Source: Bacteroidales bacterium (lineage in GTDB: Bacteria > Bacteroidota > Bacteroidia > Bacteroidales > WCHB1-69). From it: a stretch of 64,000 nt of DNA. Below the pieces are notes generated by a model, which was not told the DNA's origin, did not search any database, and saw nothing but the letters and a program-made list of their open reading frames with translations. The stretch spans positions 4,793 to 68,792 of the forward strand of contig JAGCXN010000021.1 of assembly GCA_017961265.1 (NCBI GenBank). Direction: 5' to 3'. Positions 35,896-47,284 of this stretch are shown piece after piece. The first letter of the stretch is position 1. Each line of letters begins with the position of its first letter. A program made the position numbers and the translations under genes.

Positions 35896-36033
35896 CAAAA
35901 CCTGTTTTGTAACAATTTTGTAGGTTTTCTGCCCAAGCATTGTCACTTTTTGTCGGAATCCTGACACTTTTTATCTTTCTGTTTTTCAGAAAAATAGCAG
36001 AAAACACCTCTTGAAAAAGCATTTCGGTTGCTG

Positions 36034-36041
36034 TATCTTTG
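36034..36041 (+). promoter_or_regulatory. -7 box TATCTTTG upstream of the PDDEXK_2 remnant
   Basis: Lies 29 nt upstream of the ATG at 36071. Confidence 0.45.
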
Positions 36042-36070
36042 CGGCTCAAGTACTACCTAAAAAAGACAAA

Positions 36071-36642
36071 ATGAAAAGGAAGAAGCAAAAGCAAGAGGTG
36101 CGGGTAGTGAAGAACCAGAACGGCGACCGTTTCATCGTGGAGATGCAGAACGGATGGCAGAAGCATTTCGGCGAGCGTGCAATTGTCTATGCGGGCCGGG
36201 CTGCCGGGCAAAGTGTGAAGAGAGGTGACAATCTGTATGAGAATGTCAAAGGCGTATATTCCTTGAACATAGTGGCTTACAATATGCCAGAATTCAAAGG
36301 AAAGAAGAAATTCTTTTGGAAAGTCTATCTGAAGGATGACCAAAACAAAATTTTTTCTAAAAAAAACGTCCTCTATTTCGTGGAATTGAGTAAATTTGCC
36401 GCCCAGTTGGGAACATTGGATATGGCCGACGAGCGTAACCATTGGCTCTATATGCTGACGCAGGCCGTGCATTTGAGCCAGGACGATGTGGAGGCGATGA
36501 CGCCGGTGTTCCAGCGGTTTTATGAGGAATGTCAGATTACAAAATTTACGGATATGGATACCTCCTTGCCTTAGGCATCCCCCTCGGTGATGTAGCCAAA
36601 GCTACAGGACTGACAGAAGACCAAATCCGAAAGCTTCAGTAG
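36071..36642 (+). pseudogene. decayed PD-(D/E)XK nuclease-family (PDDEXK_2 / Rpn-like) transposase-like gene
   Basis: The core motif RFIVEMQNGWQKHF and the later YFVELSKF...WLYML are present. The usual ~60-residue N-terminus is missing. The family-typical C-terminal tail GIPLGDVAKATGLTEDQIRKLQ is encoded at 36574-36642, in a different frame from the body, which stops at 36572-36574. Confidence 0.55.
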
Positions 36643-36820: not shown

Positions 36821-36848
36821 CTATTCACTATACCCTATACCCTATTCC
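36821..36848. repeat. heptad array CTATTCA CTATACC CTATACC CTATTCC (the complement is related to the GGTRATA family)
   Basis: Four units. The last unit contains the giant gene's stop codon (36842-36844). Confidence 0.7.
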
Positions 36849-39800
36849 TTCACCACCTTCCGCACCGCCATCACCTTGCCGCCATTCACCATTCTTACGA
36901 AATAAACGCCGGTGGCATAATGCGACAGGTCGATTTGCACGGTCTGTACGGACGCACTGCGTGCGTCCGAAATATCCACAGCATCCAACACCCTACCGTA
37001 TACATCCAACACCTGAATCTCACCAGCCCCTAATTGTACATTGTTCATTGTAAATTGTACATTGACCATCCCCGTGGTGGGGTTGGGATAGAGGGAGAGG
37101 ATGCCGTCAGCGTAGTCATCAATTCCTGATATCGTCACATCAATACATTCTGTTGTATCCGTACATTCGCCCATCGTGATGACACATGCATATTGACCTG
37201 AAATTGCTGGATTAAATCTCTGGTGCACCTCACCTTCAATTGTTTCATTGGTTTCACAATCAATCCACTGATATTCAGCACCTTCTTGCATCACTTCAAG
37301 CGACCAAGCATCTAGTTCTTCTGTTGTTGTCACCAATACTTCAGTATTAATCGTAATCACCGTCAGGTGCAACGTAACCACACTGTCGCAGCCGTTGGCA
37401 TTGGCGAACGTCTGCACATAGTCACCGGATTCTTCGTAAACCTCATCGTTCCAGACGTAACTGCCGCAAGCTGTTTCTGTGAATTCTGTGGTGTCGGCGA
37501 CATTGATGGTCAGGTGCAACGTCACCACACTGTCGCAACCGTATTGAGTTGAAAATTGAAAATTGAAAACTGAAAGGTTGGGGGTGCCAACATCGAAGGT
37601 GGTGTCGATGTCGCCGTTCACGTAGTGGTATGGAAGGTCGTTCTCGCAGAGGGTGACTTCGACAAGCTCAGTCACCGCCGGATGAATGGTGAGGTGCAGC
37701 GTAACAGTGCTGTCACAGCCATTCGCTGCCGTGAAAGTAGCGGTATAGTCCCCGGAAGACGTCAGCGTCTCGCCATTCCACTCATATTCGTCGCATGCGG
37801 TCATGTGGGTCTCATTCACTACTGGCTGGTTAATGGTGAGGTGCAGCGTAACCGTACTGTCACACCCCGCCGCATTCGTCAAAACGTCGGTGTAGTCGCC
37901 GCTTTCGGTGAGATTGGTGTAGCCGTGCCAGTCGAAGCTGCCGCACGCCGTGGCGGTGGTGTCGCCCTCGGTCGGTGTATTGATGGTGAGGTGCAGCGTG
38001 ACGGTGCTGTCACAGCCCGCCGCATTCTCTATAACGTCGGTGTAGTCGCCGCTTTCGGTAAGGTTGGTGTAGCCGTGCCAGTTGAAACTGCCGCAAGCCG
38101 TGGCGGTGGTGTCGCCCTCAGTAGGTGTGTTGATGGTCAGGTGCAACGTCACAGTGCTGTCACATCCAGCGGCATTCGTCAAAACGTCGGTGTAGTCGCC
38201 ACTCTCGGTGAGGTTGGTATAGCTGTGCCAGTTGAAACTGCCGCAAACCGTGGCGGAGGTGTCGCTCTCAGTAGGTGTGTTGATGGTGAGATGAAGTGTG
38301 ACAATACTGTCGCAGCCCTCGGCATTTTCCAAAACGTCGGTGTAATCACCGCTTTCGGTGAGATTGGTGTAGCCGTGCCAGTCGAAGCTGCCGCATGCCG
38401 TAGCGGTGGTGTCACTCTCGGTCGGCTCGTTGATGGTAAGGTGCAGCGTCACCACACTGTCGCATCCATTCGCCGCAGTAAAAGTAGCCGTGTAATCTCC
38501 CGAAGCCGTAAGTGTTTCGCCGTTCCACTCATATTCGTCACATGCCGTCATATAGGTCTCATTCTCCACCGGTTGATTGATGTTAACCGTCAGTATCACC
38601 GTGCTGTCACACCCGTATTGAGTTGAAAATTGAAAACTGAAAATTGAAAGGTTTGGTGTGCCGACTTCAAAGGTAATGTCAATGTCGCCGTCCACGTAGT
38701 GGTAAGGAAGTTCACTTTCGCACACGGTGACTGAGCTTGTCGAAGTCACCGCGGGGTGAACAGTGAGATGCAGGGTGACGGTACTATCGCACCCAAGGGG
38801 AGTTAAAAGTTGAAAGTTAAAAGTTGAGAGCTGGGGTGTACCGACCTCGAAGGTGGTGTCGATGTCGCCGTTGATGTAGTGGTACGGAAGTTCACCCTCG
38901 CAGATCTCATGGGTGAAGGAGGTGACGATGGGCGTACAGCCGCCGGTGCTGAAGTGCCACACTGCCGACCACACCGAGTTGCCCACGCCGTTGTACCCCT
39001 GTACCCGCCAATAGTAGGTGGTAGCGGGACGGAGATTGTGGATGGAGGCGGTGGTCTGTGCGGTAGTGCCCTGCGCAAACAGGGTGGAAAAATCGCTGCT
39101 GGTGCTCACTTGGTAGCGGTAACCGTTGACGTTGGCCAGCGTGTCCCATTGCAGAGCCAGAACAGATTGGAAGTCAATGTCGGAAGAGTCGTTGGCAGGC
39201 GAGACAAGCGTCGGTCCGGTGGTGAGCTGGTAAGGTGTGGTGAACCTCCAAACCGTTGACCAGCTGGAGGTGTCGGGGGCATTGCTGTTGATAGCGCACA
39301 CCCGCCAATAGTAGGTGGTGCCATATTGCAGTTCTGCCTCTGTGATATAGACACTTGCACCTGATGCGGTGAAGGTCGCAAATAACGGAGAGTTGAAGGT
39401 TGCAGCAGTGTCCCACTCCAGAATATAATGGTCGGCTCCCGTTACGCTATTCCAATAAACGGTAAGACGGGAATTGCTATAGGAGGAGAAGGCTGTTCCA
39501 TCGGCCGGTGAGGTCAGTACGGGTGCATCGCTGGTGGTGAACCTCCAAACCGTTGACCAGCTGGAGGTGTCGCTGTCGTTGCTGTTGATAGAGCACACTT
39601 TCCAGTAATAGGTGGTGCCGAAATTCAGCTCTGTGATATAAATACTTGATGCTGTGGCGGTGAAAGTCTCGTACAACGGAGAGTCAAAGGTGGGCACGGT
39701 GTCCCATGCCACTATGTAATGTCCCGCACCTGTGACGGAATTCCAATAGACGGTGGCTTTTACTGAGTTGGTATAAACGTAGCCGTCGCTGGGGGAGGTC

Positions 39801-42800
39801 AGTACGGGCACGCCATTCGTAGTGGTAAAATTCCACACCGCCGACCAATCGGTGGTGTCCACCGGGCTGGTCTCGCGCACCCGCCAATAGTAGGTGGTTC
39901 CAAAATGCAAACTAGTGACCGAGACCTGACTGGTGCCCACCGCAATCGTGCCAGTCGCAAGACTGGGTGAGTCGAAAGTGGCGCAGGTATCGTACTGGTA
40001 TTCGTATAGACTGCCGCCTCTGATGTAGTCCCAGTCCAAAGTGGTGGATGCTCCGACATTGGTGGAACCGTTGGCCGGCGATACCAACACGATTTCACCA
40101 GGTGTGTTGAAACTCCACGTCTCGCTCCACGGGGTGGTGTCGATGGCGGTGTACTCGCGCACCCGCCAGTAGTAGGTTTCACCAAATTGCAGAGGCGCGG
40201 TGATGTCTATTTGGCTGGTGCCCACGGCAATTTCCCCGTTCACCAATGCCGGTGAATCAAAGTCGGGACTGAGATCGTACTGGTATTGGTAGTTCAATCC
40301 GCCGCTGATATAGTCCCAATCCAACGTTGTATTAATGGTGCGGGAAAGAGTGGAACCGTTGGAGGGCGATACCAATGCAATTTCACCGGGCGTGTTGAAA
40401 CTCCACGTCTCGCTCCACGGGGTGGTGTCGATGGCGGTGTACTCGCGCACCCGCCAGTAGTATGTCTCGCCAAAACGCAGAGGCTCGGTGATGTCTATTT
40501 GGCTGGTGCCCACGGCAATTTCCCCGTTCACCAATGCCGGTGAATCAAAGTCGGGACTGAGGTCGTACTGGTATTCGTAGTAGTCGCCATCGGAGATATA
40601 ATCCCAGTCCAAGGTGGGCTTGATGGTACGCGAGAGGGTGCTGCCGTTGGAGGGGGAGGTGAGCGCAATGGTGCCTGCGGTGGTGAAGCGCCACACGGTG
40701 GACCAGCTGGAGGTGTCGCTGTTCAGACGGATGCGCACGCGCCAGTAGTAGGTGGTGCCGTAGCGGAGTTGGTTGAGCCGCACCTCGGAAGTGCCTGCCG
40801 CAATGGCGCCGCTCTGCAGCTCGGGTGAGTTGAACTGCGGGGTGGTGTCGCACTCGTAGTCATAATAGTCGCAGCTGGAGACGGCGTTCCAATCAAGGGT
40901 CGGACGGAGCCGCACCGCAGTAGAACCGTTGGAGGGCGAGGACAGTGTGGGGATGCTGCCGCCCGTGGTGAAACTCCACACGGTGGACCAGCTGGAGGTG
41001 TCGCTGTCATCGTTGTAGTTGGTGGCACGCATACGCCAGTAGTAGGTGGTGCCCAACTTCAGAGGACCGATGGAGGTACTATTGGAGGTTTTCGTTGTGC
41101 TGGCACACAGCGGGGAATTGAAAGTGGCGGTGGTGTCCCACTGGTAAATGTACTTTCCGACACGCGTGATGGCGGTGCATTTCAAGGTGGGGGTCGCCGA
41201 ATTAGGATAGACGTATCCATCACTGGGTGAAGTTAATATGGGCGCATCGCTGGTAGTGAAAGTCCATGCGGCCGACCAAGCCGAAGTGTCACTATCGTTA
41301 CTATTGGTAGCGCAAACTCTCCAATAGTAGGTAGTGGCGAATTTTATGGGCCAAATATTCACACTGGTCCCTGTGGTGGTGAAGCTATCGTAAAGGGGAG
41401 AGTCAAAGGTGGAAACGGTATCCCAGGCCAGTATGTAGTGGCTTGCTCCCGTAATGCTTGCCCAATTGACAGTAGGACCGACACAAGCGGTATAAACCAC
41501 ACCATCGCTGGGCGAGGTTAACGTGGGCACACCGCTGGTGACTGTAAAACTCCATGCGTCAGACCATCCGGACGTATCGGGTGCCTCATTCACCGACCGT
41601 ACCCGCCAATAGTAGGTGTCGCCAAATCGCAAATTGCTGAGCGCGTATGATTTGTAGTCGTCATTATTGGTAATGGATGATGTAACGATGATTTCACGCA
41701 GGGAGGAAGAATTGAAACCGGACGAGGTGTCCACCTGTAAGATGTATTTTGACGAACCACTGCTATTCTTCCACTGAAGGGTGGCGGAAGGAGATGCATT
41801 GGTGGTCTGATCTGCCGGACTGTACAAATAAACTTTGTCTCGGGTGTGAAACTGCCATGTGTCCGACCATCCAGAGGTGTCGGGTGCATTGTTGATGGCA
41901 CACAACCTATAGTAGTACATCGCCCCATGAAGCAGGTTATAGACCGTTGTACTCAACTCATTGGTCTCATCGTCTATGCCGTTGGAAATAACGACTTGAC
42001 GTAAGACAGATGAATTGAAATCAGGTGTAGTATCCAATTGAAGAATATATTTTGTTGAACCTCTGTTGTTTTGCCATTTCAAGGTCTGTCGGGTATAGTA
42101 GGTTTTTGTCGGGACAGTGTCGTGGATGGTATTGGACGTAGAGAAAACCTTGTCGATGGTGTGAAACTGCCATGTGGCCGACCAACCCGATGTGTCGGGT
42201 GCATTGTTTATGGCACAGACCCGATAGTAGTACATCGTACCATATAGCAGGTTATAGACTGTCGTACTCAACTCATTTGTCTCATTGTCAATATTATTGG
42301 TGGTAATGACTTGACGTAATATAGACGAATTGAAATCAGGCGTAGTGTCTAATTGAAGGATATACTTGGTTGAACCACGGTTGTTCTGCCATTTCAAGAT
42401 CTGTCGGGTATAGTAGTTTTTGGTTGAATCGGAATTGTTGAGGGTGTTGGATGTAGAGAAAACCGTGTCTATGGTGTGGAACTGCCATGTGGCCGACCAA
42501 CCCGATGTATCGGGTGCATTGTTGATGGCACATACCCGATAGTAGTACATTGTGCCATATAGCATATTATAAACCTTGGTGCTCAGCTCATTGGTGGTGT
42601 TGTCAATGGCATTTGTCGTATAAATCTCCCGAAGAATGGGCGAGTTAAAATGGGGTGTTGTATCTAATTGAAGAATATATTTTGTTGAGCCCTTGTTGTT
42701 TTTCCAGTAAAGAGTTTGGCGGGTATAGTAGTTTCGGGTTGAATCAGAGTTGTTGAGGGTATTGTCTGTATTATTTACAAAATCCGTAGTGCGGAACTGC

Positions 42801-43738
42801 CAAGTGGATGACCAACTGGAGGTGTCGGAGCCGTTATAGTTGGCAGCCCGCACCCGCCAATAATACATTGAACCATATCGCATATTGTTGATAATGACGC
42901 TTTGGTTGTCGGTCGTGGAAGTGGAGGAAGATGTGTGGTTAATCTGTTGTAAAACGGGTGAATTAAAATGGGGTGTGGTATCTAATTGTAGAAAGTACTG
43001 CGTTACGCCCCGGTAGGGCTTCCAAGTCAAAGTCTGCCGAGTAAAATAGTTGGCAGAGGAACTTGTATCATTGAAAGATACCAACGTGATACTGTCGCTG
43101 GTGGTGAAACTCCTCACCGCCGACCATGCCGAGGTGTCGCTCTCATCCGTATTGGTCGCCCTCATGCGAAGGTAGTAGGTCTTACCGAAATGCAGATTGA
43201 GTGGGTATTTTCCTCCAGAACTATATTCTGTAGTATAGCTTTTTAACAAGGGTGAATTGAACGACATGCTGGTATCACACTGATAGAGGTATTTGGTAGC
43301 ACCCACAATTTCTGTCCATTGGATGCTGGGAGATATGCTATTGGTGAGAATAGTCCCGTCAGCCGGGGCGGTAATGGTGGGCGCATCTGTGGTAGTGAAG
43401 CTCCGCACCGCCGATGCAGCCGATGTGTCGGCATAGTTGGCCGTGATGGCATAAACCCGCCAGTAATAGGTTGTGCCGAATTTCAATCCGTTCACGTTCA
43501 ATCCCGTGTACGAAGACGACATGGTGTAAGAACTGTAAGTAGCAAAAGTGGGGTCCTCCGACCAATGGAACAGATAATAACTTGCTCCTGAAACAGCATT
43601 CAGCTTCAAATTCGGCTTTACCGTGCTGGGATATACATAACCATCGGCAGGTGAGTTCAGCGTCGGTGCTGCAATCTGCGCAAACAAAACATTCATCCCC
43701 GCACACAGCAGGAAAATAAAGAAGGTGAACTTTTTCAT
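36842..43738 (-). CDS. giant (about 2298 aa) T9SS cargo / putative adhesin: signal peptide, 16 FN3-like modules, 10 Cys-pair modules and a T9SS C-terminal sorting domain
   Basis: Signal peptide MKKFTFFIFLLCAGMNVLFAQ. Sixteen repeats end in the motif TYYWRV...DTS.WS..W.FTT. The Cys-pair modules have the form C..Y.W.G.....SG.Y.......GCDS.VTLHLT(I/V). The C-terminus (LSLYPNPTTGMVNVQF...GVYFVRMVNGGKVMAVRKVVKE) is the Por_Secre_tail type. Confidence 0.85.
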   Translation of the reverse strand: MKKFTFFIFLLCAGMNVLFAQIAAPTLNSPADGYVYPSTVKPNLKLNAVSGASYYLFHWSEDPTFATYSSYTMSSSYTGLNVNGLKFGTTYYWRVYAITANYADTSAASAVRSFTTTDAPTITAPADGTILTNSISPSIQWTEIVGATKYLYQCDTSMSFNSPLLKSYTTEYSSGGKYPLNLHFGKTYYLRMRATNTDESDTSAWSAVRSFTTSDSITLVSFNDTSSSANYFTRQTLTWKPYRGVTQYFLQLDTTPHFNSPVLQQINHTSSSTSTTDNQSVIINNMRYGSMYYWRVRAANYNGSDTSSWSSTWQFRTTDFVNNTDNTLNNSDSTRNYYTRQTLYWKNNKGSTKYILQLDTTPHFNSPILREIYTTNAIDNTTNELSTKVYNMLYGTMYYYRVCAINNAPDTSGWSATWQFHTIDTVFSTSNTLNNSDSTKNYYTRQILKWQNNRGSTKYILQLDTTPDFNSSILRQVITTNNIDNETNELSTTVYNLLYGTMYYYRVCAINNAPDTSGWSATWQFHTIDKVFSTSNTIHDTVPTKTYYTRQTLKWQNNRGSTKYILQLDTTPDFNSSVLRQVVISNGIDDETNELSTTVYNLLHGAMYYYRLCAINNAPDTSGWSDTWQFHTRDKVYLYSPADQTTNASPSATLQWKNSSGSSKYILQVDTSSGFNSSSLREIIVTSSITNNDDYKSYALSNLRFGDTYYWRVRSVNEAPDTSGWSDAWSFTVTSGVPTLTSPSDGVVYTACVGPTVNWASITGASHYILAWDTVSTFDSPLYDSFTTTGTSVNIWPIKFATTYYWRVCATNSNDSDTSAWSAAWTFTTSDAPILTSPSDGYVYPNSATPTLKCTAITRVGKYIYQWDTTATFNSPLCASTTKTSNSTSIGPLKLGTTYYWRMRATNYNDDSDTSSWSTVWSFTTGGSIPTLSSPSNGSTAVRLRPTLDWNAVSSCDYYDYECDTTPQFNSPELQSGAIAAGTSEVRLNQLRYGTTYYWRVRIRLNSDTSSWSTVWRFTTAGTIALTSPSNGSTLSRTIKPTLDWDYISDGDYYEYQYDLSPDFDSPALVNGEIAVGTSQIDITEPLRFGETYYWRVREYTAIDTTPWSETWSFNTPGEIALVSPSNGSTLSRTINTTLDWDYISGGLNYQYQYDLSPDFDSPALVNGEIAVGTSQIDITAPLQFGETYYWRVREYTAIDTTPWSETWSFNTPGEIVLVSPANGSTNVGASTTLDWDYIRGGSLYEYQYDTCATFDSPSLATGTIAVGTSQVSVTSLHFGTTYYWRVRETSPVDTTDWSAVWNFTTTNGVPVLTSPSDGYVYTNSVKATVYWNSVTGAGHYIVAWDTVPTFDSPLYETFTATASSIYITELNFGTTYYWKVCSINSNDSDTSSWSTVWRFTTSDAPVLTSPADGTAFSSYSNSRLTVYWNSVTGADHYILEWDTAATFNSPLFATFTASGASVYITEAELQYGTTYYWRVCAINSNAPDTSSWSTVWRFTTPYQLTTGPTLVSPANDSSDIDFQSVLALQWDTLANVNGYRYQVSTSSDFSTLFAQGTTAQTTASIHNLRPATTYYWRVQGYNGVGNSVWSAVWHFSTGGCTPIVTSFTHEICEGELPYHYINGDIDTTFEVGTPQLSTFNFQLLTPLGCDSTVTLHLTVHPAVTSTSSVTVCESELPYHYVDGDIDITFEVGTPNLSIFSFQFSTQYGCDSTVILTVNINQPVENETYMTACDEYEWNGETLTASGDYTATFTAANGCDSVVTLHLTINEPTESDTTATACGSFDWHGYTNLTESGDYTDVLENAEGCDSIVTLHLTINTPTESDTSATVCGSFNWHSYTNLTESGDYTDVLTNAAGCDSTVTLHLTINTPTEGDTTATACGSFNWHGYTNLTESGDYTDVIENAAGCDSTVTLHLTINTPTEGDTTATACGSFDWHGYTNLTESGDYTDVLTNAAGCDSTVTLHLTINQPVVNETHMTACDEYEWNGETLTSSGDYTATFTAANGCDSTVTLHLTIHPAVTELVEVTLCENDLPYHYVNGDIDTTFDVGTPNLSVFNFQFSTQYGCDSVVTLHLTINVADTTEFTETACGSYVWNDEVYEESGDYVQTFANANGCDSVVTLHLTVITINTEVLVTTTEELDAWSLEVMQEGAEYQWIDCETNETIEGEVHQRFNPAISGQYACVITMGECTDTTECIDVTISGIDDYADGILSLYPNPTTGMVNVQFTMNNVQLGAGEIQVLDVYGRVLDAVDISDARSASVQTVQIDLSHYATGVYFVRMVNGGKVMAVRKVVKE
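37548..37577. repeat. in-frame heptad block GTTGAAAATTGAAAATTGAAAACTGAAAGG (encodes [10 protein letters not shown])
   Basis: Read directly. It belongs to the TTTTCAR family in the opposite orientation. Confidence 0.85.
37831..38430. repeat. four tandem 150-bp coding repeats (50-aa Cys-pair modules) inside the giant gene
   Basis: Unit boundaries at 37831, 37981, 38131, 38281 and 38431 each begin with (g/a)ttgatggt(g/c)aggtgca(g/a)cgt. The peptide unit is TPTE(S/G)DT.AT.CGSF(D/N)WH.YTNLTESGDYTDV..NA.GCDS.VTLHLTIN. Confidence 0.9.
38622..38651. repeat. in-frame heptad block GTTGAAAATTGAAAACTGAAAATTGAAAGG (encodes [10 protein letters not shown])
   Basis: Read directly. A third, more diverged block (gttaaaa gttgaaa gttaaaa gttgaga) lies at 38802-38829. 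Confidence 0.85.
41850..42795. repeat. three tandem 315-bp coding repeats (105-aa FN3-like modules) inside the giant gene
   Basis: The string aactgccatgtggccgacc recurs at 42165 and 42480, exactly 315 bp apart. The peptide GWSATWQFHTID...YYYRVCAINNAPDTS repeats. Confidence 0.85.
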
Positions 43739-43746
43739 AGTGAGAC

Positions 43747-43778
43747 CTTTCAATTATCAGTTTTCAATTTTCAGTTTA
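43747..43778. repeat. heptad block CCTTTCAATTATCAGTTTTCAATTTTCAGTTT in the 5' leader of the giant gene
   Basis: It lies between the -7 box (43789-43796) and the ATG (43736-43738). It is an inverted copy of 38622-38651, matching at 27 of 29 positions with a 17-bp perfect core, and of 37548-37577. Confidence 0.85.
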
Positions 43779-43787
43779 AAAGGACGG

Positions 43788-43877
43788 CAAAAGTACACAC
43801 ATTTTTTTGAATATTTATCCCTTCAAAACAGAAATGTGAACCCTCACAAAGGGATAAAGTGGGATGCGAGGATACGG
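43788..43877. repeat. left copy of a ~90-bp direct repeat flanking the ATPase cassette; contains the giant gene's -7 box
   Basis: Shared strings with 45209-45300: GCAAAAG(T/C)ACA, GAAAT(G/A)TGAACCCTC(AC/GT)(A/G)AAGGGA and ATGCG(A/G)GGATACG. Confidence 0.7.
43789..43796 (-). promoter_or_regulatory. -7 box (TACTTTTG) for the giant T9SS cargo gene
   Basis: Lies 50 nt upstream of the ATG at 43738. The intervening leader consists almost entirely of heptad repeats. Confidence 0.55.
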
Positions 43878-43965
43878 AAGTCATATCTCAACCTCCGCTT
43901 TTACAAACTTTTCAATCTAAAGTAAAAAAAAGATGTGGTTTTTTACTTTGAAAAGTAAAAAATTG

Positions 43966-43973
43966 TATTTTTG
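43966..43973 (+). promoter_or_regulatory. -7 box TATTTTTG for the AAA ATPase
   Basis: Lies 13 nt upstream of the ATG at 43987. Confidence 0.45.
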
Positions 43974-43986
43974 CAGCACATTAAAA

Positions 43987-45189
43987 ATGATAGATATGGA
44001 CCGATTATTTAAGGCGTATGGCCGTCTGTTGGCGGAAACCGATTTGAAATTCACCCGATATTTATATGATAATATCAACTGGGACAATCGGTTGATTGTG
44101 ATCAAGGGTGCAAAAGGAGTGGGTAAAACGACCTTGATGTTGCAACACATCAAGAAAGATTTTCCCAAAGCGGAAAAGGCTCTGTATGCCTCGCTTGACC
44201 ATTTGTGGTTTGCCACACACTCCATCCTTGATTTGGCAGAATATCATTATACGCATGGGGGAACGCATCTTTTTCTGGATGAGGTACACAAATACAAAGG
44301 ATGGCAACAAGAAATCAAGAATATTTATGATTCCTATCCCCAGCTACATGTTGTTGTAACGGGTTCATCCATGCTAAAAATCGACGAATCGTTATCCGCA
44401 GACCTTTCACGCCGACATCGTCTTTATACGATGGAGGGACTTTCGTTTCGGGAATACCTGAGTCTTGAGCATGTGGTGGAATTGCCGATCTTTTCGTTGG
44501 AGGAAATTCTAAACAACCATTTTGTGATGGCTTCACAAATCACATCAGATGTGAAAGTGCTACACCATTTTGAAAAGTATCTGAAGTCGGGCTACTATCC
44601 GTTTTATCGGGAAGAGGAGGATGGCTTTTTTGACAGGTTGCAACAAGTGATTGAAACTATTATCACCAATGAAATACCATCGGTTAGCAATATTGAATAC
44701 GATTCTGTATATAAAGCCAAGCAATTGCTGGCAGTATTGGCCGAGCAATCACCTTATACACTGAACATTTCATCTTTATGCAACACCTTGCAATCTTCCA
44801 GAAACAATGTGGTGAAACTGCTTGACCTGATGAGCAGGGCGGCCTTGATTCGTCGGCTTTATGCATCGTCGGATGGAATGAATATGTTGACAAAACCTGA
44901 AAAAATCCTCTTTTACAATACCAATCTGATGTTTTGTCTCACTTCGAACGTCGATGCGGGCACTTTGCGTGAAACTTATCTCGCCTCTCAGATTGGCACA
45001 GCGCACAAACTTTCCATGCCGGAAAAGGGAGATATAGTGGCAGATGGGAAGTGGCTTTTTGAAGTAGGAGGGAAAAGCAAGGGTTTTTCGCAGATCAAAA
45101 ATATTGAAGCGAGCTACGTGGTCGCTGATGATATGGAAATCGGTCACGGCAACAAAATTCCACTGTGGCTTTTCGGACTGCTGTATTGA
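43987..45189 (+). CDS. AAA-family ATPase (AAA_14 plus DUF4143-type architecture)
   Basis: Walker A (GAKGVGKTT) and Walker B (LFLDEVH). The C-terminal half is typical of stand-alone Bacteroidales ATP-binding proteins. I prefer the ATG at 43987, with a -7 box at 43966-43973. Confidence 0.65.
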   Translation: MIDMDRLFKAYGRLLAETDLKFTRYLYDNINWDNRLIVIKGAKGVGKTTLMLQHIKKDFPKAEKALYASLDHLWFATHSILDLAEYHYTHGGTHLFLDEVHKYKGWQQEIKNIYDSYPQLHVVVTGSSMLKIDESLSADLSRRHRLYTMEGLSFREYLSLEHVVELPIFSLEEILNNHFVMASQITSDVKVLHHFEKYLKSGYYPFYREEEDGFFDRLQQVIETIITNEIPSVSNIEYDSVYKAKQLLAVLAEQSPYTLNISSLCNTLQSSRNNVVKLLDLMSRAALIRRLYASSDGMNMLTKPEKILFYNTNLMFCLTSNVDAGTLRETYLASQIGTAHKLSMPEKGDIVADGKWLFEVGGKSKGFSQIKNIEASYVVADDMEIGHGNKIPLWLFGLLY

Positions 45190-45208
45190 TGCTTTAGAGC
45201 ATAAGGTT

Positions 45209-45300
45209 GCAAAAGCACAAAAATTTCCTGAAAATTCACCCTCTTCACGGCCGAAATATGAACCCTCGTGAAGGGAAAAAAGAAATGCGGGGATACGATT
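45209..45300. repeat. right copy of the ~90-bp direct repeat; its -7 box is degenerate (TGCTTTTG)
   Basis: See 43788-43877. It is followed by three GGATACGA mini-repeats up to about 45338. Confidence 0.7.
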
Positions 45301-45669
45301 ATGCGGGGATGTGGGGATACGAGGATGAGAGGATACGATTAGAATCCTTTTTTAAACACCTTGCAGCCATAAGCCGAAGAAGGGGTCATACACCATATAT
45401 GCGGACTTTTCCTGTGTTATGAAATCTTTTTGTATCAATAATTTGCCGGCAAAATACAACTTTTATCCTAGATAGGATAATCCTGATTAGGATAATTTTA
45501 CATTTTTCGGAGCGAGCCACCAGAGTTATCATGGTAATTTCTGAATATATCTGTTTCTCTATTAGTTACAAGACCTCAAAGTCAAGAAAGGTACGAAGCC
45601 GTTCCATTCTCTCTTCCGCGGCATCACCTACGGTGTTCTTCTTTACCTGTCGCCCGTGCCGCGGGCACC

Positions 45670-45710
45670 TTCGACAAGCTCAGGCCCCCGCGGTGGTTGA
45701 GCCTGTCGAA
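45670..45710. repeat. REP-like hairpin TTCGACAAGCTCA-N15-TGAGCCTGTCGAA
   Basis: 13-nt arms with one mismatch. An overlapping alternative stem is GGTGGTT/AACCACC. Confidence 0.65.
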
Positions 45711-45851
45711 ACCACCGCCTATTAAAATATCACCTCTCCGAGGTGAGTGAGAGTATGTCAATACTCACAGACATACGGCACGATTCCGAAGTCGCACGCC
45801 GCCTTGCGATTTTTGCCGTTAAGAAATCGTGTAGCGGCAAACTACTTTTTA

Positions 45852-45888
45852 CCTATCACCTTTTACCTGATACCTATTCACCTTTTAC
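45852..45888. repeat. imperfect heptad array CCTATCA CCTTTTA CCTGATA CCTATTCA CCTTTTA
   Basis: Read directly. It lies just upstream of the -7 box of the 45947 gene and is related to the complement of GGTRATA. Confidence 0.6.
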
Positions 45889-45912
45889 TTGACAAACTAT
45901 ATAATAATATTG

Positions 45913-45920
45913 TATCTTTG
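45913..45920 (+). promoter_or_regulatory. -7 box TATCTTTG
   Basis: Lies 26 nt upstream of the ATG at 45947. Confidence 0.5.
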
Positions 45921-45946
45921 CACCCGTTTTCGAAACAATTCTGATA

Positions 45947-47284
45947 ATGAGAAACCTTATCGCCCTTTTCGCCACCATTTTCATTTTAATGTCCTATTCG
46001 TTCGCGCAGACGTGCGGCTGCACCGACCCGCTCGCGACCAACTACAACGCCAATGCCACCGTAAACGACGGCAGCTGCGTGTATGCCTCCGCCACCATCA
46101 GCGCGACGGAAATCGGACAACTTGGCGAGACACTGGACGGCAGCTCCACCCTCCTCTTCTGGAACGGCGGCTACTGGACCTACAACGACCACAACGACTG
46201 CTGCCTCTACCGCATCGACAGCACCACCGCAGCCACCATCGAGACCTTGTGCATCAGCGGTATCGGAAACTACGACACGGAGGAGGTGTCGCAGGACAGC
46301 CTCTACCTCTACTTCGGCGATTTCGGCAACAACAGCGGTGTGCGACAGAACCTGCACATCCTGCGCATCAGCAAGGAATCCCTTCTAAACCAGACATTTG
46401 TCGTCGATACAATCTGGTTCTCATACGAAGACCAGACCGACTTCACCTCGCACCCGCAGGCCACCGACTTCGACTGCGAGTCGTTCATCGTCACTGCCGA
46501 CAGCATCTACCTCTTCACCAAGCAGTGGGCTTCGGAACAGACTACCATCTACGGACTGCCGAAAACCCCTGGCACGTACGTCGCCCACCGACTCGAAACG
46601 TACAACGTGGGCGGACTCGTCACTGGCGCCACCTACGTCCCCGAATACCGTCTGGCCGCCCTCTGCGGCTACGACTACAACGGCGGAAGCTACCTCTCCT
46701 CCCTCCATCCGTTCATTCTGTTACTCTATGATTTTCAAGGCGATGACTTCTTCTCTGGAAATAAAAGAAGGCTCGATTTCGGTACATTGGTCAAGGATCA
46801 GGTGGAGGCCGTCGCCACCAGCAACGCCATGGACTTCTACATCACCAACGAGCACTTCACCACCACGCAGCTGGGCATCACCATTGACCGCCCGGCGAAG
46901 CTGCAGCGGCTGGACCTCCGCGACTACCTACTCCCCTACCTCGCCACGTTCGAGACCGAGCCGGAAGACACCGTCCCGACCGACACGGTGCCGACAGACA
47001 CCATCGTCACGCCACCCGACACCACCGGCATCCCGCAGTTCGGTACCGACGGGTTCCGCATCTACCCCAATCCCGCTTCCGACCAGCTGCATATCGACTA
47101 TCCGCAGAATTTCAAGGGGGCAAACTACGAAATAATGAACCTGAGCGGACAAAAAATAGCCAAAGGCATTTTGAAAGATGACACTATTTCATTGAATAAC
47201 AAGAGATTCAATACTGGAAAATACATTTTGGTCATCAGGGGAAAAGAAGGAGTAAAATCGTTCATTTTTATAAAAAAAGAGTAA
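45947..47284 (+). CDS. T9SS C-terminal-sorting-domain protein of unknown function
   Basis: Signal peptide MRNLIALFATIFILMSYSFAQ and a C-terminal FRIYPNPASDQLHIDYP...GKYILVIRGKEGVKSFIFIKKE. A short TVPTD repeat linker precedes the sorting domain. Confidence 0.6.
   Translation: MRNLIALFATIFILMSYSFAQTCGCTDPLATNYNANATVNDGSCVYASATISATEIGQLGETLDGSSTLLFWNGGYWTYNDHNDCCLYRIDSTTAATIETLCISGIGNYDTEEVSQDSLYLYFGDFGNNSGVRQNLHILRISKESLLNQTFVVDTIWFSYEDQTDFTSHPQATDFDCESFIVTADSIYLFTKQWASEQTTIYGLPKTPGTYVAHRLETYNVGGLVTGATYVPEYRLAALCGYDYNGGSYLSSLHPFILLLYDFQGDDFFSGNKRRLDFGTLVKDQVEAVATSNAMDFYITNEHFTTTQLGITIDRPAKLQRLDLRDYLLPYLATFETEPEDTVPTDTVPTDTIVTPPDTTGIPQFGTDGFRIYPNPASDQLHIDYPQNFKGANYEIMNLSGQKIAKGILKDDTISLNNKRFNTGKYILVIRGKEGVKSFIFIKKE

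Follow-up and report, generated by a model that had tools for sequence, protein, structure and literature searches.

Gene and domain layout

The analyzed window is a 64,000-nucleotide stretch of DNA. On its minus strand, an open reading frame (36842..43753) runs unbroken across 6.9 kb and, read from the ATG at 43738, encodes a protein of 2298 aa. The gene and its main parts are as follows.

36842..43738, minus strand: whole gene, 2298 codons plus stop (stop codon 36842-36844)
43679..43738, minus strand: signal peptide, aa 1-20 (MKKFTFFIFLLCAGMNVLFA, with Q following), read by eye from the translation
38945..43678, minus strand: zone 1, 16 FN3-like modules, aa 21-1598, from Pfam matches and anchor spacing
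37094..37354, minus strand: accessory region with four Cys, before the C-terminal sorting domain (CTD), aa 2129-2215
36845..37093, minus strand: type A T9SS CTD, aa 2216-2298 (PF18962, TIGR04183)

The encoded product is probably a giant surface protein that forms fibrils and consists entirely of beta modules, from an uncultured Bacteroidales bacterium of the rumen. The translation, inspected by eye, starts with the N-terminal Sec signal peptide of a T9SS type A cargo (MKK, a hydrophobic core, and LFA before the cleavage point and Q). Gln at position +1 of signal-peptide cleavage agrees with the Q-rule of Bacteroidota. At the other end, a Por_Secre_tail domain (aa 2216-2297) scored 45.1 bits with PF18962 (cut-off, 27) and 38.4 bits with TIGR04183 (cut-off, 23), confirming the sorting domain that a sequence-only reading of this DNA had placed at the C terminus. 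The domain content and the CTD match also upheld its description of a giant T9SS cargo in which FN3-like modules make up one zone and Cys-pair modules another. That reading had called the two-zone architecture unusual; however, every close relative consists of FN3 modules followed by Cys modules and the CTD.

In zone 1, 16 anchors of the form (T/M)YY(W/Y/L)(R/K)(V/M/L) were counted with a spacing of 94 to 105 aa, compared with the previously proposed 16 modules of about 95 to 107 aa. The end motif proposed for these modules has variants (YYLRM, YYYRV, and YYWKV), and the last module (F16) lacks the DTS. The modules fell into the subtypes {F1,F2}, {F3-F7}, {F8,F9,F14,F15}, {F10-F13}, and F16. 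Zone 1 matched PF16656 (Pur_ac_phosph_N; 3.7e-48, 162.5 bits against a cut-off of 30, in 12 stretches), PF25788 (Ig_Rha78A_N; 3.9e-39, above cut-off), and fn3 (PF00041; 70.2 bits against a cut-off of 25). Its modules match all three families above their cut-offs, but are present here in 16 tandem copies without an attached enzyme domain.

When the whole protein, single modules, and other family members were searched against Pfam and NCBIfam, solely FN3-like families, the CTD, and spurious sub-threshold matches were obtained, and an exact-sequence look-up returned no record of the protein. The four-Cys accessory region was found in the related proteins P0003 and P0008 and was missing from L001a, L002, and L003. 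Within the 64-kb window, neither T9SS machinery genes nor other genes of the two-Cys module family were found. The window does contain one further gene with a Por_Secre_tail, at 45947-47284.

Ten modules of one two-Cys family

The Cys-pair zone (aa 1601-2128) comprises ten two-Cys modules, each ending in GCDS.

38756..38938, minus strand: module A1, aa 1601-1661
38576..38755, minus strand: module A2, aa 1662-1721, linker with the S form of a 25-nt element
38429..38575, minus strand: module B1, aa 1722-1770
37829..38428, minus strand: modules C1-C4, aa 1771-1970, four 150-nt units
37682..37828, minus strand: module B2, aa 1971-2019
37502..37681, minus strand: module A3, aa 2020-2079, linker with the E form of the 25-nt element
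37355..37501, minus strand: module D, aa 2080-2128

Clustering agreed exactly with the ten modules, the types A, B, and C plus a divergent D, and the order A-A-B-C-C-C-C-B-A-D proposed from the sequence. The A modules are 60 to 61 aa long with mutual amino acid identities of 61 to 72%; B1 and B2 (49 aa) are 90% identical in amino acids and 78% in DNA; C1 to C4 (50 aa) are 84 to 94% identical in amino acids; and D (49 aa) is 45 to 55% identical to B and C.

All four types belong to one family of 49- to 61-aa mini-modules, predicted to be five-stranded and Ig-like. With a profile derived from 54 short modules of distant members, A1 to A3 were recovered at independent E values of 1e-5 to 8e-10, and the B, C, and D modules at 1e-21 to 1e-26. 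AlphaFold2 predicted the same five-strand pattern in each module, with pLDDT values of 96 for B1-C1-C2 and 92 for B2-A3-D. The profile search and structure prediction that had been suggested for the module types thus agreed on a single family. Its marks, two invariant Cys, G-C-D-S, a last strand TLxLT, and a length of about 50 aa, were present in all ten modules, and the invariant and near-invariant columns were established across 63 diverse module triplets. The module subtypes are real and conserved across species. The possibility had been raised that the types are one homogeneous known domain in arbitrary order; this held in that they form one family whose order varies, but the family is neither curated nor homogeneous.

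The family is large. At 50% identity, at least 34,232 proteins represent it, and a single protein can carry as many as 82 modules. A search gave more than 7,228 matches, with about 1,660 module copies in the best 120. None of the ten modules matched Pfam even at E = 10, and none matched NCBIfam. PDB sequences compared with the module profile and with the family member P0052 gave weak chance matches to antibody light chains or nothing, and a literature search for an earlier description of the two-Cys module returned nothing relevant. A curated family of similar layout is PF19081 (Ig_7, CHU_C associated), which is likewise a two-Cys "C...GC" beta module before T9SS sorting domains but has an 84-position profile that none of the ten modules matched even at E = 10. 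An Ig_7-like "E" module breaks up the arrays of L001a and P0008; it scored 17.4 bits with PF19081, below the cut-off of 27.3.

In the wider family, the module array is typically located directly before the sorting domain. Of the best 150 representatives, 145 were scored; in these, the last module was followed by a median of 180 aa, and by no more than 300 aa in 113. The modules often make up 60 to 85% of giant Bacteroidota T9SS cargo and are not covered by Pfam-A or NCBIfam. Because there is no family model, members are misnamed, for example as "PAPS reductase" or "YegP," and a curated model for the two-Cys family would tidy much annotation.

Structural comparison and proposed role

In Foldseek searches with both models, the top matches were five stem fragments of GhpA (E values of 5e-6 to 9e-4), followed at lower ranks by Rib, titin, and RTX-extender arrays. 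The probability for GhpA was 1.00 at an E value of 5e-6, yet the TM-scores were low (0.31 to 0.47). On these models, the fold closest to the mini-module array is predicted to be that of the GhpA grappling-hook stem. The GhpA stem has been described as 52 Ig-like repeats with disulfides and glycans (PDB 9flp, 9fls, 9flw, 9flx, 9fly). The present protein resembles GhpA of Aureispira, and by extension SprB-type fibrils, in that both are giant T9SS cargoes ending in a sorting domain and both have a long run of small beta modules, predicted here to be Ig-like and forming a straight stem in GhpA; disulfides and O-glycans are reported on GhpA modules and predicted here. In contrast, GhpA is a 5,898-aa heptamer with a hook and with porP/porE-like genes alongside, whereas the modules here are 49 to 61 aa long with one invariant Cys pair, and no porP/porE-like neighbors were seen in the window. 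A PDB sequence search detected no sequence homology to the GhpA repeats, and the SprB repeat PF13573 had no match in the protein. The stalk repeats of fibrillar adhesins (Rib, titin-like Ig, and RTX BIg extenders) share the beads-on-a-string all-beta architecture, but those systems use other secretion and anchoring routes.

The sequons of the modules point to glycosylation. The O-glycosylation sequon of Bacteroidota is D(S/T)(A/I/L/V/M/T) (PMC8550257). A D-S-(V/T/I) sequon directly follows the second Cys in all ten modules; across the family, 1436 of 1661 modules show C-D-S after the second Cys, with a sequon-compatible residue at the third position in 97.7%. The whole protein contains 35 sequons, compared with 15.1 +/- 3.7 in shuffled sequences. 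We suggest that the protein would be exported by Sec and then probably O-glycosylated, with the Cys pair of each mini-module probably acting as a disulfide staple, as its invariance and strand positions imply. Export by the T9SS would follow, the CTD would be cut off, and the new C terminus would be fixed to the cell surface. The mini-module array, with inter-module connectors of three residues, may form a stiff stalk beside the anchor, and the FN3-like array may form the distal part, comparable to the stems of GhpA and SprB-type fibrils. From its position and sequons, the module array likely serves as an O-glycosylated stalk adjoining the cell-surface anchor, and a fixed sequon beside a conserved Cys predicts regularly glycosylated, disulfide-stapled stalks. 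The protein may act as an adhesin or bind carbohydrates, as had been supposed earlier; no separate adhesive tip domain was found in it.

The B and C module sequences are almost fully conserved in spite of saturated synonymous sites, which is beyond the need of a passive spacer. This conservation hints at a type-specific function for the B and C modules, which the stalk account leaves unexplained.

Module order in this gene and its relatives

The palindromic part of the order comprises eight of the ten modules (A2 B1 C1-4 B2 A3), with A1 and D outside. Random permutation of the ten modules or runs gave a palindrome of at least eight modules and at least three types in about 1% of trials, a value that takes no account of the post hoc choice of the sub-window or of the number of related arrays (more than 20) and is still not negligible. 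None of these arrays has the mirror order. A probable orthologue, L001a, which shares the upstream neighbor gene (98.6% amino acid identity) and is collinear in DNA at 88 to 91% identity, has the order AABCCCCC-E-ABA. Other orders were AABCCABDA (L021), AABCCABDAA (L019), AABDDADA (L002), sADDDABDAA (L026), AABCCADD (P0003), and sACCCBCCC (P0004). Arrays with the same A1-A2-B1-C-C head have very different tails, and two-type palindromes are frequent in the relatives (ACCAACCA, CCCBCCC, and ADDDA). We agree with the sequence-only reading that simple one-unit tandem duplication does not produce the order. The order differs in every homologue examined, including the neighbor-sharing L001a. The mirror order is real but, being one of many arrangements produced by recombination of old subtypes, largely ordinary. 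The finding as originally posed gives no indication of a new mechanism; the order is a lineage-specific result of recombination among repeat subtypes.

The mirror could instead be functional, with antiparallel chains or a fold-back bringing like modules to meet like (A2:A3, B1:B2, C1:C4, and C2:C3). The strong type-specific purifying selection (dN/dS of 0.05 to 0.13 in the C pairs) and the permutation result of about 0.01 fit this idea, as does the DNA similarity of C1 to C4 among non-neighbors and of C2 to C3. However, no C pair is more similar than C3/C4, the symmetry is spoiled by A1 and D, and the order is kept in none of the related arrays, so that we regard a functional mirror as very unlikely.

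Origin of the module order

Module-level duplication-inversion and repeated gene conversion homogenizing the paired modules had been put forward as sources of the mirror. B1 and B2 differ at pS 0.77 and pN 0.05, with saturated synonymous sites and a longest identical tract of 17 nt; the C pairs have pS values of 0.36 to 0.69; and A2 and A3 have a dS of 0.65 and a longest identical tract of 24 nt. The synonymous saturation of B1/B2 excludes recent gene conversion, and long identical tracts are absent from both the B and the A2/A3 pair. In favor of inversion, the linkers of A2 and A3 contain a perfect 26-nt inverted repeat with its arms 1047 nt apart inside the gene.

38725..38750, no strand: arm 1, perfect 26-nt inverted repeat, S form, encodes VTSTSSVT before A2
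37652..37677, no strand: arm 2, E form, exact reverse complement of arm 1, encodes VTELVEVT before A3

The inverted repeat, however, spans just 25 to 26 nt, and every module is a direct repeat on the coding strand, which excludes inversion; inverted module DNA contains stop codons. When the 1047 nt separating the arms were inverted in silico, 18 stop codons appeared, which rules out an alternative coding state. Both mechanisms are scarcely credible as the source of the order.

Nested growth in situ requires no outside exchange: an ancestral run of A modules would be split by a pair of B modules, which would in turn be split by an expanding run of C modules, all through tandem duplication and divergence inside this one gene. 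Array repeats tend to multiply in mid-array (PMC1553488), similarity is highest among the central C units (84 to 94% amino acid identity), and the FN3 zone likewise follows an X X Y Y Y Y X X scheme (F8,F9 / F10-13 / F14,F15). Against this, the saturation of B1/B2 and the dS of A2/A3 make the inner pair older than the outer pair. In addition, the modules nearest in DNA to B2 and A3 are not B1 and A2 but modules from other array lineages. The nearest DNA relatives of B1 are the third modules of AAB arrays (92 to 95%); those of B2 are module 7 of L026-28, the sADDDABDAA arrays (89%), and module 1 of L033 (87%); and those of A3 are L026 module 10, L005 module 6, and L002 module 8 (all 87%). The best-matching relative also switches across the S site: compared with L002, L019, and L021, the 90 nt upstream are 98.9% identical and the 150 nt downstream 78 to 81%, whereas compared with L001, identity is 80% upstream and 90% downstream. 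Together with the different tails behind the shared head, these results make nested growth alone unlikely.

Because B2 and A3 are nearest in DNA to another array lineage, we interpret the order as a recombination mosaic. Homologous or template-switch recombination at module boundaries would have reassorted four old subtypes, all strongly constrained by purifying selection, with exchange both between tandem modules and between paralogous arrays and with growth of internal runs. The present copy would be an "A1-A2-B1-C..." lineage joined to a "...B-A-D" part that is kin to another array lineage by DNA identity. A fibril protein whose module order arose as such a mosaic is, taken as a whole, the best explanation of the data, and we consider it probable.

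An assembly artifact could also have altered the order or number of the 150-nt units, since all relatives are metagenome-assembled genomes and tandem repeats are difficult for assemblers. However, the open reading frame is intact across the whole gene, and each of the junctions A-B, B-C, C-C, C-B, B-A, and A-D is also seen in independent assemblies. The repeat units differ by 11 to 23% in DNA and are therefore individually distinguishable, which leaves an artifact very improbable.

A 25-nt quasi-palindrome in the linkers

The 25-nt quasi-palindrome (GGTGACT-TCGACAAGCTC-AGTCACC) is present in the linkers before A2 and A3 and before A-type modules in relatives; A1 has no such element. It was seen in both orientations and without synonymous variation, and it is located at a recombination junction. 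Its hairpin has a 7-nt stem within the 25-mer (8 nt with the flanking base of the 26-nt arms) and an 11-nt loop, and the two arms are related by inversion of the loop. With nucleotide-level conservation, both orientations, and the junction position, the element is a concrete lead on array reshuffling.

We also considered that the element is a cis-acting recombination site, used by a trans-acting recombinase or by hairpin template switching, that drives gain, loss, and reordering of module blocks and whose facing copies could invert the segment between them. If so, inversion would truncate the protein before the sorting domain and act as an ON/OFF switch, and the surface fibrils of rumen Bacteroidales would be diversified by a shufflon-like system. 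We give this proposal only a small chance. The inverted-repeat pair within a Bacteroidales surface-protein gene recalls intragenic invertons and shufflons (PMC10028968), and the relation of the arms through hairpin-loop inversion recalls template-switch loop inversions (PMC8794818), but no inverted allele, recombinase gene, or alternative frame was found here. No interruption at these sites was seen in the assembled family genes of the fetched loci, which came from genome, metagenome, and JGI contigs. Among the annotated neighbors in the window, L002, L019, and L026, there was no recombinase or invertase gene; these neighbors encode AAA_14/DUF4143 ATPases, a Mg-chelatase-like ATPase, a subtilase, DUF2589, RNase T, and a deaminase.

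Dual coding was considered as the cause of the constancy of the 25-mer and was rejected by reasoning, because third codon positions of the S form fall on third positions of the E form. A 333-aa antisense open reading frame (37625-38626, plus strand) was dismissed as a by-product of the repeats; similar frames occur in 11 related loci, and none is in-frame after inversion.

Architecture of the giant cargo protein

The giant gene lies in an open reading frame running from 43753 to 36842 on the minus strand, with its ATG at 43738, and encodes 2298 aa. The translation begins with a typical signal peptide, followed by sixteen modules of 94 to 105 aa, each with a (T/M)YY(W/Y/L)(R/K)(V/M/L) anchor, and Pfam assigned this zone to the FN3-like families PF16656, PF25788, and PF00041, each over cut-off. 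Ten modules with two Cys apiece and a C-terminal GCDSxVTLxLT occupy aa 1601 to 2128. Pairwise identities sorted these into subtypes A, B, C, and D, with three, two, four, and one copies, respectively, arranged as A1 A2 B1 C1 C2 C3 C4 B2 A3 D. A four-Cys region (aa 2129 to 2215) and a C-terminal type A sorting domain (PF18962, TIGR04183) complete the protein. The sequence-only reading had already recognized the sixteen FN3-like modules, the four Cys-pair classes with their order, and the Cys-containing, Por_Secre_tail end, all of which the analysis confirmed; its FN3-like module length was given as about 95 to 107 aa. The FN3-like zone (38945-43678) is also built of subtypes, in the bracket order F8,F9 / F10-F13 / F14,F15 (identities of 67% for F8/F14 and 89% for F11/F12), and F4-F6 form a recent run with 69 to 82% identity.

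The two-zone architecture had been called unusual, but every close relative had its Cys-pair modules behind the FN3-like modules and ahead of the sorting domain. More broadly in the family, 90 to 300 aa usually separate the end of the array from the C terminus, and the sorting domain follows the array directly. In the P. gingivalis system, type A cargo is anchored at the surface via its processed C terminus, and on that basis the Cys-pair array is taken as the anchor-proximal part of the protein. A 333-aa ORF (37625-38626, plus strand) lies antisense to the array; similar ORFs are present in 11 related loci, and it seems to reflect the lack of stops in the repeats rather than a real gene.

A large family of Cys-pair modules

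The Cys-pair module, alone or in context, had no match in Pfam-A or NCBIfam. With the C-terminal 698 aa as the query, at least 7,228 of the best 8,000 candidates were significant matches, and the 120 best contained about 1,660 module copies. With a profile built from 63 three-module stretches, 34,232 representative proteins were detected at E <= 0.001, of which 12,952 reached E <= 1e-30; the 145 best had a median of 36 copies per protein and a maximum of 82. On such proteins, Pfam reported no more than the sorting domain (PF18962 or CHU_C) and spurious fragments, which on giant members included PAPS_reduct, TMEM181_GOLD, ZT_dimer, MHC_I_C, and others. 'PAPS reductase' and 'YegP' are among the misleading names that some members carry from their sources. 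Both problems (affecting P0026, P0057, P0058, P0085, P0125, P0127, and P0223) arise because no curated model covers the module. A profile made solely from 54 distant short modules found all ten modules of the giant protein, including those of the longer A type, in which the standard module begins with 'ELPY' and carries about 10 inserted residues.

Predicted fold, glycosylation, and function

AlphaFold2 models of B1-C1-C2 (pLDDT 96) and B2-A3-D (pLDDT 92) both showed five strands per module and connectors of just three residues. The best structural matches of both models were stem fragments of GhpA, the Aureispira grappling-hook protein, followed by other tandem Ig-like stalks, and PDB sequence searches found no sequence-level relation of the module to any chain. 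The GhpA paper describes a T9SS substrate with 52 Ig-like stem repeats that have disulfides, with glycans on all repeats.

D-S immediately follows the second Cys in 1436 of 1661 modules, and 97.7% of these continue with V, T, I, L, A, or M. This near-invariant C-D-S-(V/T/I), found family-wide (for example, at 37355-38938), fits the Bacteroidota O-glycosylation motif D(S/T)(A/I/L/V/M/T) (PMC8550257). The giant protein has 35 such sequons versus 15.1 +/- 3.7 in shuffled sequences, at a fixed place in all ten Cys-pair modules and at least once in 13 of the 16 FN3-like modules, and is probably glycosylated at them. The giant protein is a T9SS fibril of Ig-like repeats, an already known kind of system. 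Because of its architecture, fold neighbours, and motif conservation, we infer that it would act as a glycosylated, disulfide-stapled stalk with an FN3-like arm, which is possibly adhesive.

Origin of the module order

The mirror-like order noted from the sequence is real for eight of the ten modules, which form a palindrome, and the other two lie outside it. The proposed origins, duplication-inversion or repeated gene conversion, are both contradicted. Every module runs in the same direction at the DNA level. Of 49 third codon positions, 24 differ between B1 and B2 (pS 0.77, pN 0.05), whose longest identical tract is 17 nt, and the C units show pS values of 0.36 to 0.69 with dN/dS of 0.05 to 0.13. 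Direct orientation and high synonymous divergence therefore exclude inverted duplication and recent gene conversion.

The same four subtypes occur in relatives in different orders.

Order of modules in the window and in related loci (L) and proteins (P); s, divergent short module with <65% identity to any of the four types; E, weak Ig_7-like module
Window: AABCCCCBAD
L001a: AABCCCCC-E-ABA
L021: AABCCABDA
L019: AABCCABDAA
L002: AABDDADA
P0003: AABCCADD
P0008: AABCCCC-E
P0004: sACCCBCCC
P0016: sADDCBCC
L026-28: sADDDABDAA
P0019: sACCAACCA

The A1-A2-B1-C-C head is the one conserved part, and this within a single lineage. Palindromes of two module types are common in related arrays, and the three-type palindrome of the window arose in about 0.01 of permutations, a value uncorrected for multiple testing. 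A like bracket pattern recurs in the FN3-like zone (F8,F9 / F10-F13 / F14,F15). In DNA, the closest counterparts of B1 are third modules in AAB arrays (92 to 95%); those of B2 are B modules from sADDDABDAA arrays (89%) and from L033 (87%), and those of A3 are A modules from L026, L005, and L002 (87%). In a sliding comparison, the best-matching relative switched sharply between A1 and A2, where the linker carries the S form of a 25-nt element.

DNA identity around the S site
90 nt upstream: L002/L019/L021, 98.9%; L001, 80%
150 nt downstream: L002/L019/L021, 78-81%; L001, 90%

The array thus appears to be a mosaic of pre-existing, long-diverged, strongly conserved subtypes. Old subtypes would have been joined at module boundaries and the internal C run expanded; internal expansion of this sort has been described for repeat proteins at large (PMC1553488). 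The mirror order is real, yet not conserved, and is explained by recombination.

An inverted 25-nt element before A-type modules

Within the region, just one long inverted repeat occurs, with perfect 26-nt arms:
37652-37677: linker before A3 (VTELVEVT), E form
38725-38750: linker before A2 (VTSTSSVT), S form

Each 25-mer is a quasi-palindrome and the exact reverse complement of the other, with 7-nt stems (GGTGACT and AGTCACC) and an 11-nt loop, so that inverting the loop turns one linker into the other. In related genes, the two forms occur again before A-type modules (L001 14962, 16246, and 16573; L002 15995, 16616, and 16943; L026 4938, 5559, and 6219; and others). Among copies picked by peptide match alone, the eight codons of the S form showed zero synonymous variation (ten distinct copies, eight genes) and those of the E form almost zero (thirteen copies, ten genes). 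The flanking codons, which differ at most of their third positions, and the B, C, and D linkers vary freely. Double coding was rejected as the cause of this constancy, which extends across genes and species, as third positions in the codons of one form fall on third positions in the other. The predicted hairpin had -15.9 kcal/mol (z = -2.6) in the S context and was weaker in the E context.

The most economical account is a template-switch loop inversion, comparable to those described previously (PMC8794818), which would have been followed by local homogenization at a recombination hot spot. Alternatively, and less probably, the pair could be a recombinase site or an intragenic inverton of the kind described elsewhere (PMC10028968). 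No inverted allele was found in related loci and no recombinase gene among neighbouring genes. When inversion of the full 1047-nt segment was simulated, the predicted protein was cut short near aa 1674.

Genomic neighbourhood

The closest loci are from MAGs labelled 'Bacteroidales bacterium' from buffalo and sheep rumen. The giant gene is flanked by housekeeping genes and the following:
36011-36574, plus strand: truncated PD-(D/E)XK_2 gene ('transposase' or Rpn-like nuclease family), directly downstream
43933-45189, plus strand: AAA_14/DUF4143 ATPase gene, upstream and divergent
45947-47284, plus strand: second T9SS cargo gene (445 aa, Por_Secre_tail), unrelated to the giant gene

The sorting domain of the 445-aa protein is consistent with a T9SS-proficient organism. 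We treat L001a (2369 aa) as the orthologue of the giant gene because the loci have the ATPase gene in common (98.6% aa identity) and the giant genes are collinear in most of their length (88 to 91% DNA identity). The ATPases agree at 98.6% in protein, though the giant genes share only about 90% in DNA. The ATPase gene adjoins family genes in six loci at differing relative positions (L001 8563-9819; L019 8247-9590 and 9687-10913; also L020, L021, and L033). G+C is about 0.43 in 42001-46000 versus about 0.545 in 38001-42000. The low-G+C stretch takes in the ATPase gene and the intergenic region as well as the first FN3-like modules, and it may have been exchanged; L001 matches 42134-45431 at 91% identity.

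The window has one family gene only. Family genes lie side by side, two or three per locus, in L001 (9953-21494; 2369 aa, 525 aa, and at least 802 aa), L020, L026, and L028, which provides partners for paralogue exchange. In L002 (10447-12549), a 168-aa N-terminal family-gene fragment is followed by three unrelated ORFs (one DUF2589 protein and two without matches) and then the next family gene, a layout that may be an insertion or rearrangement scar.
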